Positions 14,120 through 19,824 of a stretch of 64,000 nucleotides of DNA are shown here, piece by piece. A model generated the notes under the pieces. It was not told the DNA's origin and made no database searches. It saw only the letters and a program-made list of their open reading frames with translations. The number at the start of each line of letters is the position of its first letter. Position 1 is the first letter of the stretch. Position numbers and translations under genes: made by a program. Source of the stretch: Escherichia phage FP43; sequence record MN648445, one strand, 5' to 3'.

Positions 14120-14431
14120 ATGGTTTATGTATATGCAATAGTTTATCGAGATATGGAAGGATTTACTGTCCCGGTTCCACTTGATGAGCATCGTCCTGCA
14201 GTATTTTTTAGAAAGGATATTGCAGATAAAGTTTTCGATACTTTGAAAACACAGTATAAAACAGATTTAAAAATGGGAGTTCTAAGAATGGTCGAAACTC
14301 CGCGTAAGTTCTGGTTTAATAAGCTTGAAATGAAACACGTTAAACTAGATGCGGAGACGCAAAGATTGTATCAACGAATTCTGGACACAGGCCGTATTGT
14401 TAGTATTCCAATTGCAGGGACTTTACGATGA
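14120..14431 (+). CDS. Dda.1-like protein
   Basis: 103-aa ORF immediately upstream of, and overlapping, dda. Confidence 0.55.
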   Translation: MVYVYAIVYRDMEGFTVPVPLDEHRPAVFFRKDIADKVFDTLKTQYKTDLKMGVLRMVETPRKFWFNKLEMKHVKLDAETQRLYQRILDTGRIVSIPIAGTLR

Positions 14432-15741
14432 CATTTGATGATTTGACTGAAGGCCAGAAAAACGCCTTCAACGTTGTTATGAACGCTATTAAAGAAAAGA
14501 AACATCACGTAACTATTAATGGGCCTGCTGGTACAGGTAAAACAACCCTTACTAGATTCATCGTTGAAGCCCTTATTTCTTCTGGAGAATCAGGTATTAT
14601 TTTAGCAGCCCCTACACATGCTGCTAAAAAGGTTCTAAGCAAACTTGCAGGTCAAGAAGCATCGACTATTCATAGCATTCTTAAAATCAACCCAACTACA
14701 TACGAAGAAAACGTATTATTTGAACAGAAAAAGGTTCCCGACTTAGCCTTGTGTCGTGTACTGTTATTTGATGAAGCGTCAATGTGTGACCGTTCTCTGT
14801 TTAAAATAATGTTAGCTAGTATCCCTAAATGGTGCACAGTAATTGGAATCGGCGACCGATGCCAGATTCGTCCGGTAGACCCAGGCGAATCAACGGCGTA
14901 TCTAAGTCCTTTCTTCACTCACAAAGACTTCGTGCAATGCAACCTTACAGAAGTTAAACGTAGCAATGCACCAATTATTGATGTTGCGACTGATATTCGT
15001 AATGGCAAATGGATTTATGATAAAGTAGTTGATGGGCACGGTGTTCATGGATATACAGACCTTAAATCATATATGATGAACTATTTTAATGTCGTTAAAA
15101 CTCCTGAAGACCTTTTCGAAAATCGAATGATGGCATTCACAAATAAGTCAGTAGATAAGTTGAATTCAATTATTCGCCGAAAACTTCTCGAAACAGAAAA
15201 GCCATTTATTAAAGATGAAGTCATTGTTCTACAAGAGCCGTTTACCAAGACGTATAAGCTAGATGGCAAAAATATGTCTGAAATGCTTTTCAATAACGGG
15301 CAATTCGTTCGTATTCGAGATGCTGTAGAAACGTCTACATTCGTTAAAGCACGTGGTGTTTCGGGCGAATATATGATACGATACTGGAATCTTACAGTAG
15401 AAACATATGGGGATGATGAAGAATACATCCGCGAAGATATAAAGGTTATTTCTTCTGAAGAAGAGCTTTATAAATTCAATTTGTTTTTGGCTAAGACTGC
15501 AGAAACATACAAATTCTGGAATAAAGGTGGTAAAGCTCCATGGAGCGAATTCTGGGATGCTAAACGTATGTTCACTAAGGTGAAGGCACTACCAGTATCA
15601 ACCTTCCATAAGGCCCAGGGTATGTCTGTTGACACGGCCTTTGTTTATACACCGTGTATCCATTATGCTGATTCAGAATTAGCTAAACAGTTATTGTATG
15701 TCGGCACAACTCGTGGTCGTTTTGACGTCCATTTTATTTGA
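14428..15741 (+). CDS. dda: Dda DNA helicase (SF1B)
   Basis: 437 aa; Walker A GPAGTGKTT; close match to recalled T4 Dda. Confidence 0.92.
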   Translation: MTFDDLTEGQKNAFNVVMNAIKEKKHHVTINGPAGTGKTTLTRFIVEALISSGESGIILAAPTHAAKKVLSKLAGQEASTIHSILKINPTTYEENVLFEQKKVPDLALCRVLLFDEASMCDRSLFKIMLASIPKWCTVIGIGDRCQIRPVDPGESTAYLSPFFTHKDFVQCNLTEVKRSNAPIIDVATDIRNGKWIYDKVVDGHGVHGYTDLKSYMMNYFNVVKTPEDLFENRMMAFTNKSVDKLNSIIRRKLLETEKPFIKDEVIVLQEPFTKTYKLDGKNMSEMLFNNGQFVRIRDAVETSTFVKARGVSGEYMIRYWNLTVETYGDDEEYIREDIKVISSEEELYKFNLFLAKTAETYKFWNKGGKAPWSEFWDAKRMFTKVKALPVSTFHKAQGMSVDTAFVYTPCIHYADSELAKQLLYVGTTRGRFDVHFI

Positions 15742-15750
15742 GAGAAAATT

Positions 15751-16428
15751 ATGAGCACTGATGTTATTATAGATTTTGAAACATTCGGCAATACGTCAAA
15801 AGCTGCTGTTATTGACCTTGCGGTTATTGCATATAATTCGGACCCTGAAATTGTTGAATCATTCGAAGAACTTGTTCAACGAGGTAAGCGAATTAAATTT
15901 AATTTAGCTTCTCAGAAAGGGAAGCGAGTTTTCGCTAAATCCACTATGAAATGGTGGAAAGAACAATCAGCAGAAGCACGTAAAAACCTGGCCCCGTCTG
16001 AAGACGATGTCACTACGCTTGAAGGCGTTAAAATCTTTTTAGATTATTGTCGAGCTAATAAAGTTGACCAATGGAAATCACAGATGTGGTGCCGTGGTAT
16101 GAGCTTTGACTTCCCGATATTGGTCGATTTGATTCGTGACCTCTATCGTGATGAAGGTGTTCTTGAACCAGATATTGATACCGATAAATTAGAACCGGTT
16201 AAATTCTGGGCTCAACGCGATATTCGTACGGCAATCGAAGCTTACTCGTTGACACGAGGATTAAGTATGTGTCCATTACCGATGGGTACGCTAAAAGGAT
16301 TCGTTGCCCATGATAGTATTCACGATTGTGCTAAAGATATTTTGATGTTAAAATATGCTCAGCGTTATGCGCTTGGCCTTGAAGATGTCCCTGAGAATCC
16401 TGACCCGTTAAGTGTAAAACAGCGATAA
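15751..16428 (+). CDS. dexA: DexA exonuclease A (DEDD family)
   Basis: 225 aa; N-terminal DFETFG exonuclease motif; synteny after dda. Confidence 0.85.
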   Translation: MSTDVIIDFETFGNTSKAAVIDLAVIAYNSDPEIVESFEELVQRGKRIKFNLASQKGKRVFAKSTMKWWKEQSAEARKNLAPSEDDVTTLEGVKIFLDYCRANKVDQWKSQMWCRGMSFDFPILVDLIRDLYRDEGVLEPDIDTDKLEPVKFWAQRDIRTAIEAYSLTRGLSMCPLPMGTLKGFVAHDSIHDCAKDILMLKYAQRYALGLEDVPENPDPLSVKQR

Positions 16429-16433
16429 AAACA

Positions 16434-16463
16434 GTTTACAACCAAGGATGGTTGGAGTATAAT
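16434..16463 (+). promoter_or_regulatory. early-type promoter cassette with 5-bp stem (CAACC/GGTTG)
   Basis: GTTTACAACCAAGGATGGTTGGAGTATAAT; same cassette as at 16990 and 63887 with compensatory stem changes. Confidence 0.6.
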
Positions 16464-16493
16464 CTTTCTATCTTAACCAAACAGGAAAACATT

Positions 16494-16988
16494 ATGAATA
16501 TCAATACCACGGCTACTTACATCCTGAAAGATGAAAAACAAATCAACTGGTACGGTGCTTCAGTGCGAGCTTATGAAAAGTTTTGTGAAATTTTAGGTGC
16601 CACTCAAGGTAATAGTTTCACTATTGTTAACTTCATCAAACAAGTTGAAGGCCCTTGGTTATTCTTAGAAATTAAAAATTCATATGGTACAATTTCTACT
16701 ACCGCCCTTCCAAGCACCGACTTTGAACTGTTGATTGAAGAAGTAGAACCCGTTAAAGATATCTGTATTGATATGGATATCGCTTGTATGTACGGTACTC
16801 TGATTAAGCCTATTGAGCCTACTGATTTGTTGTGTAAATATGTTTCAATTCGACGTCCGTTCGCAGGTCCAGTAAATGGATGGGTAACTGACCAATGGAT
16901 TGAAGACGGTGTTGAACTTCTGAACGTTGTTCATGCAGGTGATTTTAGTGTAGTTCCACGTAGTGCTGTGGTTAATATCCTTAATTAA
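16494..16988 (+). CDS. hypothetical protein, member 1 of a tandem paralog triplet
   Basis: C-terminal W(V/I)EDG-x-(K/E)L-x-N(I/V)V-x-(A/L)G-x-F-x-VVP motif shared with the next two ORFs; ATG 16494 preferred over TTG 16452. Confidence 0.6.
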   Translation: MNINTTATYILKDEKQINWYGASVRAYEKFCEILGATQGNSFTIVNFIKQVEGPWLFLEIKNSYGTISTTALPSTDFELLIEEVEPVKDICIDMDIACMYGTLIKPIEPTDLLCKYVSIRRPFAGPVNGWVTDQWIEDGVELLNVVHAGDFSVVPRSAVVNILN

Positions 16989-16989
16989 T

Positions 16990-17020
16990 GTTGTACATCC
17001 AAGGACGGATGGAGTATAAT
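16990..17020 (+). promoter_or_regulatory. early-type promoter cassette with 5-bp stem (CATCC/GGATG)
   Basis: GTTGTACATCCAAGGACGGATGGAGTATAAT. Confidence 0.6.
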
Positions 17021-17050
17021 GAATTCAATTTAAACAAAGAGAGAGAAATT

Positions 17051-17506
17051 ATGATTACTATTGGTGAAATTAAGCGTGTATCGTCTGCATCTCGTTCTAA
17101 AGCTGCAGGTCGTCTAGTTGAAGTGGTAGGACTTCGTACTAATGGTACTGGACGTGTTAAAGAAGTTAAAGTTCGAATCATTCCTAGTTCTGGAAAAACT
17201 GAAACTCAGTACGCTTACGTAAGTCCTAAATTCTTGGAAACTCATGTGAGCGCTCATTTTGCTTCTACTGAACCTAATGTACAGTTCAAATGGGCCCTTT
17301 GCAAAGGCGTTGAATTCCGGACTGATAAAGAATTTGATTTCATCGACGAATATGGTTATCCAAACAAAACTGATATTATGTGCGGCTTCATCAGTGACCA
17401 ATGGGTTGAAGATGGTGAAAAGTTATACAATATCGTATTCTTAGGTGACTTCCGAGTTGTTAAAGAATCTGAAATCACTCGCTATGTGTCTCCTCGTAAA
17501 GCTTAA
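17051..17506 (+). CDS. hypothetical protein, paralog 2 of triplet
   Basis: N-terminal SASRSKAAGRLVEV and C-terminal DQWVEDGEKLYNIVFLGDFRVV shared with paralog 3. Confidence 0.65.
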   Translation: MITIGEIKRVSSASRSKAAGRLVEVVGLRTNGTGRVKEVKVRIIPSSGKTETQYAYVSPKFLETHVSAHFASTEPNVQFKWALCKGVEFRTDKEFDFIDEYGYPNKTDIMCGFISDQWVEDGEKLYNIVFLGDFRVVKESEITRYVSPRKA

Positions 17507-17515
17507 GGAATTATT

Positions 17516-17935
17516 ATGAATATTGTAAATCTCTCTACAGGTGATTACGTATATGTATCTGTTGCTTCTCGCTCTAAAGTTGCCGGGAAGTTGGTTGAAG
17601 TTCTTTCTGTGAGTGATCCGGTTTTTGGTCGTAACCAAGTTAAAGTTCGTGATGCTAATGGTAATATTGGCTACGTCTCAAGCCAGTTCATTGAGCCAGA
17701 AGAAAAAGCGTTCAAATGGGGACTATGCAGATCAGTTTCTGTTGAAAAAGACCATGAATTCACTATTGCTGCGGCAACTGATGGAACGCCATGGAAAACT
17801 AAGCAAATCGCCGGATTTATTAGCGACCGTTGGGTAGAAGATGGTGTTAAGCTTTATAACATCGTTTTCGCTGGTCAGTTCATGGTAGTTCCTGAATTCC
17901 AAATTAAAAAATATAGCCCAGCTGCTTTCGCATAA
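17516..17935 (+). CDS. hypothetical protein, paralog 3 of triplet
   Basis: SVASRSKVAGKLVEV and DRWVEDGVKLYNIVFAGQFMVVP. Confidence 0.65.
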   Translation: MNIVNLSTGDYVYVSVASRSKVAGKLVEVLSVSDPVFGRNQVKVRDANGNIGYVSSQFIEPEEKAFKWGLCRSVSVEKDHEFTIAAATDGTPWKTKQIAGFISDRWVEDGVKLYNIVFAGQFMVVPEFQIKKYSPAAFA

Positions 17936-17994: not shown

Positions 17995-18519
17995 ATGTTA
18001 GTTTACCGCGTAGAACGTAGTTTTTGTACTCAACGTGAATCATTACCAGGAATTGTTATCGAAGACGGTAAAGCCGTCAGAATTTGGGAAACCTCTTGGA
18101 ATAAAGAACCTCGCTCACCTTACGGTTGGTCTGGCACTGACAACTCTGAAGAAACATGGGAGTTCCTTGATAAGCATGGAATACTCTCAGGTAACTTCTA
18201 CCATCACGGCGACAACTATAATGTCCCTAATCGTCCTACAGTAAATGAAGACAAACTTCTTGAACAAAATATCTTAAGATACCATAGAATTGAGTACACA
18301 TTTGAATTGAGTGAAGATTGGGCTCAAGGGTTCTATTTTGGATTTGAAAGCGTTGACGCGGTTTATGCATGGTTTGATGACCAGGTGGATGTTGAACTCT
18401 TGAAAGCTAAAGGATACTACATCGCGGTCTATGAAGCACCTGATTTCATCCTCGGAAGTTGTCAATTAATGTTTAGACGTTCATTGGCAGAACAAGTTGA
18501 TTTTATTTTGCTAAAATGA
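17995..18519 (+). CDS. hypothetical protein
   Basis: 174-aa ORF. Confidence 0.6.
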   Translation: MLVYRVERSFCTQRESLPGIVIEDGKAVRIWETSWNKEPRSPYGWSGTDNSEETWEFLDKHGILSGNFYHHGDNYNVPNRPTVNEDKLLEQNILRYHRIEYTFELSEDWAQGFYFGFESVDAVYAWFDDQVDVELLKAKGYYIAVYEAPDFILGSCQLMFRRSLAEQVDFILLK

Positions 18520-18576: not shown

Positions 18577-18804
18577 ATGAAACGTCAAATCATTAAAAAC
18601 GTAACTACTGATTCAAACATCGATGAGTTTGAAGATGTTCTGTTTAATCCTGATTTAGTTGTTGTACAGAAAAACTGGACCGGATTTTTATGCTACACCG
18701 AAGTGGTTTACGTTTACGAAAAACTCGGTGATGAAATGCCTATCTACGGTATCTTCCGTGAAATCACTGAAAACGGTACAACTTATTGGAAGGAAACTTA
18801 CTAA
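18577..18804 (+). CDS. hypothetical protein
   Basis: ATG 18577 after GAGGAG; 75 aa. Confidence 0.5.
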
Positions 18805-19214
18805 TGGCTAATAAATTCCGCGTTAACTCGTGGTACCAATTTAAAGATAAACGTGCCCAAGAAGAGTTTATTAAGGACCACACCGATAATGGGATTTATG
18901 CACGACGTCTTGGCATGGAACCATTTAAAGTATTAGATGTTGACCATCTTGGTCGTCCTACTAAAATTGTGACATCTACTGGCATGGTTGGATACGCAAC
19001 AGGTGGTGATATCCTTGATGAAAACTTTATCTGGCTCTCCACGAATGAAGCAGAGTTCTTTGACGAAGTTGGAAATCCATATCAAGCGTCCGAAGAGCAA
19101 GATTCTAGTGAACTTGGTGAATTGTCTGAATTTCCGGTGATGTCGATTACTATCGAAAATAACGACCAGGCATGGTCTTTGTATCAAATGTTGAAAGCAC
19201 ATTTTAAGGAATAA
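18804..19214 (+). CDS. hypothetical protein
   Basis: TAATG overlap start; 136 aa. Confidence 0.55.
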
Positions 19215-19398: not shown

Positions 19399-19824
19399 AT
19401 GGCTTTTAAAGGTTTTGAAGTTGGTAAGAAATATCATATTATCAAAGGTCAAGAAGATAATTTCTTGAGAATTCTTAATACGACTGGTAAACGTCTTAAT
19501 ACTAATCTGCATACTACTTTATTGTCCAAAGATTTTATTGTGGAAGAGATGATTGGTTACGGTGTTTCGGTTATTGCTGTAGAAGCCGTAGGCGATTATG
19601 GCCGAACTATTCATAGTATGCAAGGTGATATTCTGCTTTATGGTGCAGAATTTAAATTCTTTGAAGAAGTTCAGGAACCAGATACAGCTGTCGATTTCAA
19701 AAAAGGCTCTATAGAATTTGTTGATGGTTCGGTGATCGTATCAGGTGATGTGGTCATTACAGTTAAAAGTGAACAAGGGCGTTTGGCTGCAATTGATGCA
19801 CTTCAGAAAATTAAATTTAAATAA
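19399..19824 (+). CDS. hypothetical protein
   Basis: 141-aa ORF followed by terminator. Confidence 0.6.
   Translation: MAFKGFEVGKKYHIIKGQEDNFLRILNTTGKRLNTNLHTTLLSKDFIVEEMIGYGVSVIAVEAVGDYGRTIHSMQGDILLYGAEFKFFEEVQEPDTAVDFKKGSIEFVDGSVIVSGDVVITVKSEQGRLAAIDALQKIKFK

Follow-up and report, generated by a model that had tools for sequence, protein, structure and literature searches.

In the window, by which we mean the whole 64-kb stretch of phage DNA analysed here, three adjacent genes follow dexA. We put the probability at roughly 85% that they are MotB.1 (ORF1), MotB (ORF2) and a second MotB-type gene (ORF3) of an RB69-like (Mosigvirus) T4-type phage, and that they are old, separately conserved relatives with one small C-terminal domain in common rather than the products of a fresh local triplication. 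An earlier note on this DNA had described a tandem triplication of one small-protein family, a local expansion of the kind typical of fast-evolving host-interaction or anti-defence genes. The three adjacent ORFs on the + strand lie where it placed them, and they are both paralogous and independent. The lengths it gave hold for ORF1 and ORF3 (164 and 139 aa), but ORF2 has 151 residues and not 152. Annotations and publications already cover these genes, the paralogy among them and the additional copy that RB69-type phages carry: the C-terminal domain common to MotB and MotB.1 has been described, and the two motB copies and motB.1 of RB69 pointed out, by Patterson-West et al. (2021).

Gene order and family assignment

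The window is an RB69-like Mosigvirus. Its three-gene region has 95.9-99.4% DNA identity to RB69-like phages, and the RB69 annotation names the three genes motB.1, motB and "RB69ORF010c similar to motB". At 95% identity each, RB69 MotB and RB69ORF010c are the direct orthologs of ORF2 and ORF3, respectively, and the order of the genes is the same. The genes of the window run dexA, ORF1, ORF2, ORF3, motB.2, cef, goF, whereas the order in T4 is dexA, motB.2, motB.1, motB, cef; ORF1 thus directly follows dexA, while in T4 motB.2 precedes motB.1. This order bears out the proposed likeness to the motB/cef/dexA neighbourhood of T4, and ORF2 and ORF3 share with T4 MotB both the strand and the location in the early region, between dexA and cef. 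The region between dexA and motB.2/cef is early and nonessential in the laboratory.

All three proteins are members of one small phage-restricted family, PF17613 (motB, "Modifier of transcription"). Their whole-protein scores of 35.1 (ORF1), 131.1 (ORF2) and 75.6 bits (ORF3) pass the curated gathering cut-off of 25 bits; the match covers only residues 84-159 of ORF1, and residues 1-146 of ORF2. Among the PHROGs, ORF1 is assigned to phrog_2333 (E 1.7e-82, residues 1-164), and ORF2 and ORF3 are assigned over their full length to phrog_1671 (E 5.5e-64 and 6.6e-51, respectively).

Table 1. Coordinates of the genes, domains, shared blocks and promoter-like sites in the window
Feature	Position	Strand	Description
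Promoter-like site upstream of ORF1	16435..16463	+	sigma-70/T4-early-type consensus, TTTACA-17-TATAAT, 11/12; dexA-ORF1 gap; consensus match only
ORF1	16494..16988	+	164 aa, MotB.1 ortholog, acidic, pI 4.5
ORF1 N-terminal domain	16494..16748	+	residues 1-85; alpha/beta small barrel, AF2 pLDDT about 80-87
ORF1 linker motif	16770..16811	+	DMDIACMYGTLIKP, residues 93-106, in predicted disordered linker
ORF1 C-terminal domain	16815..16985	+	residues 108-164; MotB.1-type version, pLDDT about 90, five beta-strands
Shared block, ORF1	16896..16958	+	WIEDGVELLNVVHAGDFSVVP
Promoter-like site upstream of ORF2	16992..17020	+	TGTACA-17-TATAAT, 10/12; ORF1-ORF2 gap; consensus match only
ORF2	17051..17506	+	151 aa, MotB, pI 8.8 (N-terminal domain pI 10.7)
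Shared block, ORF2	17402..17464	+	WVEDGEKLYNIVFLGDFRVVK, last residue K
ORF3	17516..17935	+	139 aa, second MotB-type paralog (RB69ORF010c type), pI 7.8
Shared block, ORF3	17831..17893	+	WVEDGVKLYNIVFAGQFMVVP

Promoter-like sites are not more frequent in the region than expected by chance (6 found vs 5.2 +/- 2.8 expected). From the site upstream of ORF1 up to the start of that gene, 64 nt show 73% identity to the stretch upstream of ORF2. The consensus scan found no + strand site directly upstream of ORF3, which is separated from the ORF2 stop by 9 nt and is probably co-transcribed with ORF2. A scan of the region for terminators found none.

One C-terminal domain and different N-terminal domains

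The C-terminal block reported earlier is present in all three proteins, except that the ORF2 copy ends in K and not in P. Its W[VI]E[DNE]G motif occurs three times in the six frames of the window, once in each ORF. ORF2 and ORF3 are alike over their full length in BLASTP (43% identity, 145 columns, E 2e-31), whereas the similarity of ORF1 to ORF3 (E 2e-10) and to ORF2 (E 3e-10) is confined to the last 29-36 residues, and BLASTP found no similarity of the ORF1 N-terminal domain to either protein. As judged from these alignments, the resemblance among the three is far beyond chance. The MotB and MotB.1 family profiles match over 52 columns in hhalign (98.7% probability, E 3e-16), and the homology therefore covers the whole C-terminal domain, from LC(K/R)xV onward, beyond the 21-residue block. 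This domain of about 55-75 residues is the family-defining part, and it is predicted by modelling to form a five-stranded small beta-barrel of Tudor/KOW/SH3-like type. The C-terminal domain of MotB has been published as an OB-fold (cold-shock type) with five-stranded OB topology.

Tudor, chromo, PWWP and KOW small beta-barrels, such as the tandem Tudor of 53BP1 and the KOW domains of Spt5 and NusG, have 5-20% identity to the domain, which is a resemblance of fold and not family membership; the Tudor/KOW comparison gave no evidence of an aromatic cage and no evolutionary link. A phmmer search of PDB sequences with ORF2 found no relative (best E 0.7), and a BFVD fold search returned only T4-like MotB, "KOW domain" and "transcriptional regulator" proteins. 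The word-indexed search with ORF3 gave almost only close orthologs, and the wider family came from the searches with ORF2 and ORF1. When a profile of the three C-terminal domains was run against 1.84 billion representative proteins, it recovered 28 representatives and nothing convincing beyond small phage-type proteins, and thus gave no sign that the family arose in cells or is more widely distributed. Long multi-stretch matches of 570 and 842 aa to this profile look spurious.

ORF2 and ORF3 have the two-domain layout of MotB proper, and both align with T4 MotB (NP_049626) in a KOW-like N-terminal domain with SRSK-x-AG-x-LVEV and in a C-terminal domain with FKW...DQWVEDGxKLYN.VF.G. The N-terminal block that the two were said to share is indeed common to ORF2 (VSSASRSKAAGRLVEV) and ORF3 (VSVASRSKVAGKLVEV). 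They are 52% and 48% identical to T4 MotB, respectively, and shorter than its 162 aa. The start of ORF2, MITIGE, corresponds to MIINIGE in T4 MotB (MI.IGE in common). Neither the IIPxxGKxxxQ loop nor the inter-domain segment of T4 MotB is present in ORF3, whose charge is near neutral. The N-terminal barrel of ORF2 is strongly basic, that of ORF3 mildly so (pI 8.1). The AF2 model of ORF3 (pLDDT 88.4, pTM 0.77) has two beta-barrel domains.

ORF1 does not have this layout: its C-terminal domain (DPTDLLC...GWVTDQWIEDGVELLNVVH) follows a different N-terminal domain, of MotB.1 type, the combination typical of the MotB.1 family (phrog_2333), which is "Category 2" of Patterson-West et al. (2021). It matches the 143-aa form of T4 MotB.1 over its full length with the same type of N-terminal domain, but at only 46-53% identity, while the C-terminal domain is near-identical between the two (DPTDLLCK.V.IRRPF...GWVTDQWIEDGVELLNVVHAG..SVVPRSAV). 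The columns of this MotB.1-type C-terminal domain are invariant in the family alignment, and it is 74-88% identical among proteins with differing N-terminal domains. The AF2 model of ORF1 has a mean pLDDT of 79.0, which falls below 50 in residues 86-107. ORF1 differs from T4 MotB.1 in a 21-residue insert with the linker motif; this motif, absent from T4 MotB.1, recurs in many family members of differing architecture, including forms with a KOW-type N-terminal domain. The N-terminal domain of T4 MotB.1 is described as an LSm-like fold akin to GoF and Frd.2 (Kim et al., 2025; PMC12152347), a family characterised by a bent, five-stranded antiparallel beta-sheet. That of ORF1 is probably of the MotB.1 branch of this GoF/Frd.2/MotB.1 family, a relationship that is structural and profile-level only, and GoF and Frd.2 are without the MotB-type C-terminal domain. 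Besides goF, the window has another goF-like gene, which matches the MotB.1 PHROG weakly (E 6e-4).

Age, distribution and alternative histories

Any two of ORF2, ORF3 and T4 MotB share about 50% identity, and in the NJ tree the proteins of the ORF3 type branch off deeply as a clade of their own. Orthologs of the ORF3 type (at least 80% identity) were found in 207 of 777 MotB-carrying phage records, some Tequatrovirus included; in 570 of the 777 the only matches to ORF3 are below 60% identity, and T4 and most Tequatrovirus are without this type. The Tequatrovirus RB10 carries motB.1-motB-motB', with a MotB 86% identical to ORF2 and a MotB' 89% identical to ORF3, while its MotB.1 and MotB.2 are only 48% and 35% identical to the genes of the window. 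In the identity matrix, ORF2 and ORF3 are 50% identical to each other versus 89% for each to its RB10 ortholog, which is not the pattern of a recent tandem amplification. Repeats among the genes at the DNA level are only short matches, 73-91% identical, at conserved motifs. The pair of MotB.1 and MotB is conserved across Tevenvirinae. Within ortholog groups of 7-9 genomes with intact ORFs, dN/dS is 0.13 for ORF1, 0.21 for ORF2 and 0.16 for ORF3, which indicates that each gene is under purifying selection; we left dN/dS between paralogs for these ortholog comparisons because synonymous sites are saturated at 43-50% amino-acid identity. MotB of the ORF2, ORF3 and T4 types are old, roughly equidistant lineages that move between phage genera, and these sequence comparisons favour reading the tandem MotB pair as two divergent alleles that were kept adjacent over a recent duplication in place.

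Frameshifted versions of ORF1 exist in two reference genomes. Two single-T insertions in the RB69 record break the ortholog (motB.1) into 132 aa and a 29-aa ORF (ORF012c); it is a single 164-aa ORF in the window and in six other Mosigvirus genomes. The 29-aa RB69 peptide that the literature lists as "Category 3" is the end of motB.1, read out of frame. In the T4 reference NC_000866.4 a 1-nt insertion cuts MotB.1 to 119 aa, whereas resequenced T4 has 143 aa (QPI17238.1) and the extra base is absent from 13 other records. Since both references shift near the same place we considered programmed frameshifting, which these 13 records rule out for T4; for RB69 it is unsupported, as the six relatives are in frame.

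In spite of these broken reference versions, there is virtually no chance that ORF1-3 are pieces of one longer ancestral gene interrupted by frameshifts or stops, the scenario that the earlier note had named as fatal to its own account and that we reject for this window. All three ORFs are complete, and each has an ATG and a purine-rich ribosome-binding site of its own; the common C-terminal domain is present in full in each, where fragments would be expected to hold consecutive pieces of one protein, and the three lengths are conserved between genomes. We also find it very improbable that one small gene was recently triplicated in tandem and diverged quickly in an arms race. The adjacency of the genes on one strand, their common motif and the similar upstream regions of ORF1 and ORF2 speak for such a history, and the alleles of MotB diverge strongly and are distributed without regard to phage genus, which fits a host-interaction gene (PMC7827196). 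Against it, ORF1, which has just its C-terminal domain in common with the others, has a T4 ortholog, ORF2 resembles ORF3 no more closely than either of them resembles T4 MotB, the ORF3 type is a deep clade with the same arrangement in another genus, and dN/dS is low in every ortholog group. The triplication and the fast evolution proposed earlier are at odds with these results, and the idea of a local expansion with the Tevenvirinae-wide MotB.1 and MotB pair and the 207 records, RB10 included, with an ORF3-type copy.

Nor is ORF3 likely to be a redundant, decaying extra copy of MotB without a function of its own. It is shorter and less basic than MotB and missing from T4 and most Tequatrovirus, but it is exactly 139 aa and intact in 9 of 9 genomes, its dN/dS stays low despite a dS of 0.38, 205 sequences belong to the P0001 cluster alone, and the model is confident and well folded; we regard decay as quite improbable. 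We judge in the same way, as a slim prospect, that the family inhibits a bacterial immune system instead of modulating the nucleoid and H-NS. The genes lie in a variable, early, nonessential region with many host-takeover genes, the alleles are mosaic across genera, and MotB.1 has no known function, its deletion from T4 giving no phenotype (PMC12152347). However, what experiments there are on the family indicate that it binds DNA non-specifically and affects the H-NS regulon, and literature searches yielded no link to a defence system; the anti-defence role once suggested found no supporting evidence.

Proposed function and implications

T4 MotB binds DNA tightly and without sequence specificity, co-purifies with H-NS and StpA and is toxic when overexpressed (PMC6070864, PMC7827196); it associates with H-NS only when DNA is present (PMC7827196). 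The host-interaction role assigned to the family in the earlier note agrees with this picture of an early DNA-binding protein that alters H-NS binding (PMC6070864, PMC7827196). T7 gp5.5 and T4 Arn are, like MotB, early proteins with which a phage relieves or alters the action of H-NS (PMC7827196), but unlike MotB they bind H-NS directly, and their folds are unrelated. By analogy with the T4 MotB experiments, ORF2 and probably ORF3 would be abundant early nucleoid-associated proteins that bind host and phage DNA non-specifically, remodel the complexes of H-NS and StpA with DNA and increase the burst size to a modest extent. A further source on T4 MotB function is reportedly Son et al. 2021 in NAR.

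The C-terminal domain of ORF2 and ORF3 is coupled to a KOW-like N-terminal barrel that carries the SRSK-x-AG motif; in ORF1 it is joined, through the disordered linker, to a different, acidic N-terminal barrel. Charge and fold suggest that DNA is contacted mainly through the basic N-terminal domain, with which the pI of 10.7 in ORF2 is compatible. The conserved, acidic-to-neutral C-terminal domain may be a common module for partner binding or self-association, as its charge, conservation and fold suggest, and it may be reused with interchangeable nucleic-acid-binding N-terminal domains. ORF3 could differ from MotB in the strength of DNA binding, given its near-neutral pI and the two missing MotB segments.

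A more specific proposal, which we consider speculative and unlikely, is that the C-terminal domain (~55 residues, Tudor/SH3-like) is a partner-binding or hetero-oligomerisation module that joins MotB, the second MotB and MotB.1. The two DNA-binding alleles would then have subfunctionalised, for example toward different host nucleoid proteins or toward the DNA of the host versus the modified DNA of the phage; the acidic MotB.1 would act as their modulator, and its recurrent DxDVAxMYGTL linker motif would be a docking peptide for a host protein. If this were true, the published negative results on T4 MotB.1, obtained with the 119-aa form without most of the domain, would need to be repeated. 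Every resequenced T4 encodes the 143-aa MotB.1 with the full conserved domain, which concerns anyone who expresses or models MotB.1 from NC_000866.4. For the family, the shared block marks the core of an entire conserved domain, one that is recombined with different N-terminal domains.

Identity of the genes and the phage

The three ORFs lie on the plus strand downstream of dexA, with the coordinates and motifs that the earlier note had listed, except that ORF2 encodes 151 aa, not 152, and its conserved C-terminal block closes with VVK instead of VVP. Beyond motB.2 the same strand carries cef, goF, 39.2, a second goF-like gene and the topoisomerase large subunit gene; between dexA and cef, T4 has motB.2, motB.1 and motB. 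Because the 4.2-kb stretch around ORF1-3 matches Escherichia phage vB_EcoM_SA79RD at 99.4% identity and RB69 at 95.9%, with at least 80% of it covered in 148 phage records, sequence comparison assigns the phage to the RB69-like Mosigvirus group.

Features of the motB region, with mean dN / mean dS (Nei-Gojobori, orthologs compared)
Feature	Coordinates	Strand	Description	dN/dS	dS
dda	14428-15741	+	early gene block		
dexA	15751-16428	+	early gene block		
Stretch upstream of ORF1	16437-16500		64 nt		
ORF1	16494-16988	+	164 aa	0.13	0.14
Linker motif DMDIACMYGTLIKP	16770-16811		ORF1 residues 93-106, predicted disordered linker		
Upstream extension of ORF2	16988-17050		open frame from ATG at 16988		
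Stretch upstream of ORF2	16994-17057		64 nt		
ORF2	17051-17506	+	151 aa	0.21	0.30
ORF3	17516-17935	+	139 aa	0.16	0.38
motB.2	17995-18519	+		0.12	0.07
goF	18804-19214	+			
RB69ORF005c-like gene	19399-19824				

All three ORFs score above the Pfam gathering cut-off of 25 bits for the motB family PF17613 (ORF1 35.1, ORF2 131.1 and ORF3 75.6 bits). In PHROGs, ORF1 matches phrog_2333, the MotB.1 family, over its full length (E 1.7e-82), and ORF2 and ORF3 belong to phrog_1671, "MotB-like transcriptional regulator". In the RB69 record the orthologs are annotated as motB.1, motB and "RB69ORF010c similar to motB". MotB and MotB.1 have been described as sharing a C-terminal domain behind different N-terminal domains, and duplication of one gene to give the other has been suggested (Patterson-West et al., 2021, PMC7827196); the MotB.1 N-terminal domain has been described as an LSm-like fold akin to GoF and Frd.2 (Kim et al., 2025, PMC12152347). 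The MotB.1-MotB-MotB' array and the paralogy of its genes are already annotated and published.

The same early region holds a second paralog pair, goF and the second goF-like gene, which is RB69ORF005c-like. Both match phrog_622, and the latter also weakly matches phrog_2333 (E 6e-4), PHROG assignments that are consistent with the published LSm-like GoF/MotB.1/Frd.2 family.

A common C-terminal domain

ORF2 and ORF3 align over nearly their full length (BLASTP E 2e-31, 43% identity), and matches of ORF1 to either are confined to its last 29-36 residues (E ~1e-10). Each ORF has a single W[VI]E[DNE]G pattern, and translating the entire window in six frames reveals no others. When the C-terminal parts are aligned alone, the likeness begins upstream of the block, at LC(K/R)xV, and strands 1 and 2 of the domain are separated by an insertion of ~14 residues in ORF2 and ORF3. 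When alignment profiles of MotB (47 sequences) and MotB.1 (35 sequences) are compared, 52 columns match with 98.7% probability (E 3e-16). This extent, together with the start at LC(K/R)xV, argues that the unit common to the three proteins is the entire domain. The ORFs are paralogs, as had been proposed, but "triplication" misdescribes them, since ORF1 shares only the C-terminal domain with the other two and differs in its N-terminal domain.

The family is narrow. Searched exhaustively with a profile of the three C-terminal domains, 1.84 billion proteins yielded only 28 representatives (50% clustering), nearly all of 100-250 aa, and BFVD structure matches were likewise limited to T4-like phages; no relative with a solved structure was found among PDB sequences. 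N-terminal partners of the domain include KOW-like, MotB.1-type and duplicated N-terminal domains, and a D-x-D-V-x-x-M-Y-x-T motif and DPTDLL often precede it. The former linker motif, DMDIACMYGTLIKP in ORF1, recurs as D-x-D-V/I-x-S/C/H-M-Y-x-T in many members whose N-terminal domains differ, and 180-aa forms carry it at their N-terminus; T4 MotB.1 lacks it. It could be a docking peptide.

Age, exchange and integrity of the copies

The earlier note had read the array as a local expansion. A recent triplication is rejected on several grounds. ORF2, ORF3 and T4 MotB are about equidistant (global identities: ORF2-ORF3 50%, ORF2-T4 MotB 52%, ORF3-T4 MotB 48%), and in a neighbour-joining tree built from 47 MotB-type proteins the ORF3 type branches deeply as a separate clade. 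Nor is it local: tblastn with ORF3 found a family member in 777 phage records, 207 of which hold an ORF3-type ortholog (at least 80% identity), the remaining 570 having only matches below 60%. DNA-level repeats within the window amount to short matches at conserved motifs and one 64-nt upstream stretch.

RB10, a Tequatrovirus with the order motB.2, motB.1, motB, motB', is among the 207. Its MotB is 86% identical to ORF2 and its MotB' 89% to ORF3 (BLASTP; RB10 1508-2920 against window 16494-17935; 89% each in global alignment), whereas the adjoining MotB.1 and MotB.2 reach merely 48% and 35%, and its MotB is only 47% identical to that of T4 although the two share a genus. The motB-motB' pair thus seems to travel between genera as a mosaic cassette. 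P0028 and P0029, two metagenomic proteins grouping with the ORF3 clade, are each encoded by the sole MotB-type gene of their T4-like contig, which fits a picture in which several divergent MotB "alleles" circulate in these phages, two having become fixed in tandem in some lineages.

That the paralogs might be fragments of one broken gene is rejected for the window. RB69, RB10 and another six Mosigvirus genomes all have intact ORF2 and ORF3, and in those six ORF1 is likewise an uninterrupted 164-aa frame. All three, and motB.2, are under purifying selection; ORF2 and ORF3 show more diversity than the neighbouring genes, synonymous sites included.

Frameshifts do affect motB.1 in two reference genomes. 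Unlike the window and the six genomes, the RB69 record (AY303349, 2295-2791 against window 16494-16988) has two single-T insertions that split the ORF1 ortholog into a 132-aa "motB.1" and the 29-aa RB69ORF012c, the "Category 3" peptide of Patterson-West et al. (2021). The T4 reference (NC_000866.4/AF158101.6) has an extra G, ATTGGAAG against ATTGAAG in others (NC_000866.4 2292-2310, minus strand; MT984581 710-1141; window 16889-16988), which shortens MotB.1 to 119 aa (13.8 kDa, ending ...DQWIGRWR). In thirteen other records (T4, T4T, RB55 and RB59) the segment measures 510 nt, against 511 in the reference, and lacks the extra G, giving 143 aa with the full conserved domain, as annotated in MT984581; a protein of this length occurs on 256 contigs. 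Since Kim et al. (2025, PMC12152347) reported a MotB.1 of 13.8 kDa, the computed mass of the 119-aa form, from synthesised genes, their construct probably was that form and lacked most of the conserved domain.

Promoter-like sites, which are consensus matches only and no more numerous in the region than expected by chance, precede ORF1 (11/12) and ORF2 (10/12) as strong matches and motB.2 (9/12) as a weaker one. The consensus scan found none directly before ORF3, which starts 9 nt past the ORF2 stop. The 64-nt stretches upstream of ORF1 and ORF2, each made up of promoter-like hexamers, GGAGTATAAT, a leader and a ribosome-binding site, share 73% identity. This could mean that the promoter was duplicated along with the gene, or simply that both stretches conform to the extended T4 early-promoter consensus.

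Two annotation points concern MotB itself. The ORF2 frame continues upstream without a stop as far as an ATG overlapping the ORF1 stop (TAATG), and several database entries annotate the resulting 172-aa form, probably an artefact because the start at 17051 matches T4 and RB69 MotB and sits downstream of a promoter-like site. In phage ST0 (MF044457, 698-1301) MotB is unannotated though an intact ORF is present (176 aa, counted from the first in-frame ATG aligned), making this a gap in annotation and not a loss of the gene.

Structure and function

The AF2 model of ORF3 is confident (pLDDT 88.4, pTM 0.77) and predicts two all-beta domains; that of ORF1 (pLDDT 79.0) places an alpha/beta barrel at the N-terminus, followed by a disordered linker (residues 86-107) and then a C-terminal domain of pLDDT ~90. 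The modelled folds resemble Tudor domains (PHF19, ERCC6L2), the MRG15 chromo domain, PWWP domains and the KOW domains of Spt5 and NusG. The MotB C-terminal domain has been called an OB-fold in an HHpred-based publication; on either assignment the domain would be a small beta-barrel. Computed pI values contrast sharply between the domains: 10.7 and 9.75 for the N-terminal domains of ORF2 and T4 MotB, 4.85 and 4.65 for the C-terminal domains of ORF2 and ORF1 (whole ORF1 4.5, whole ORF3 7.8).

T4 MotB, made early and in abundance, binds DNA tightly whatever its sequence; it also raises expression of part of the H-NS regulon, doubles burst size and reportedly compacts the nucleoid (PMC6070864; PMC7827196; Son et al., 2021, cited through another paper), which bears out the host-interaction theme of the earlier note. 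Deletion of T4 motB.1 has no phenotype in laboratory conditions (PMC12152347). By analogy, ORF2, and probably ORF3, would act like T4 MotB, with the basic N-terminal domain making most of the DNA contact, and the conserved C-terminal domain may serve as a common partner-binding or self-association module.
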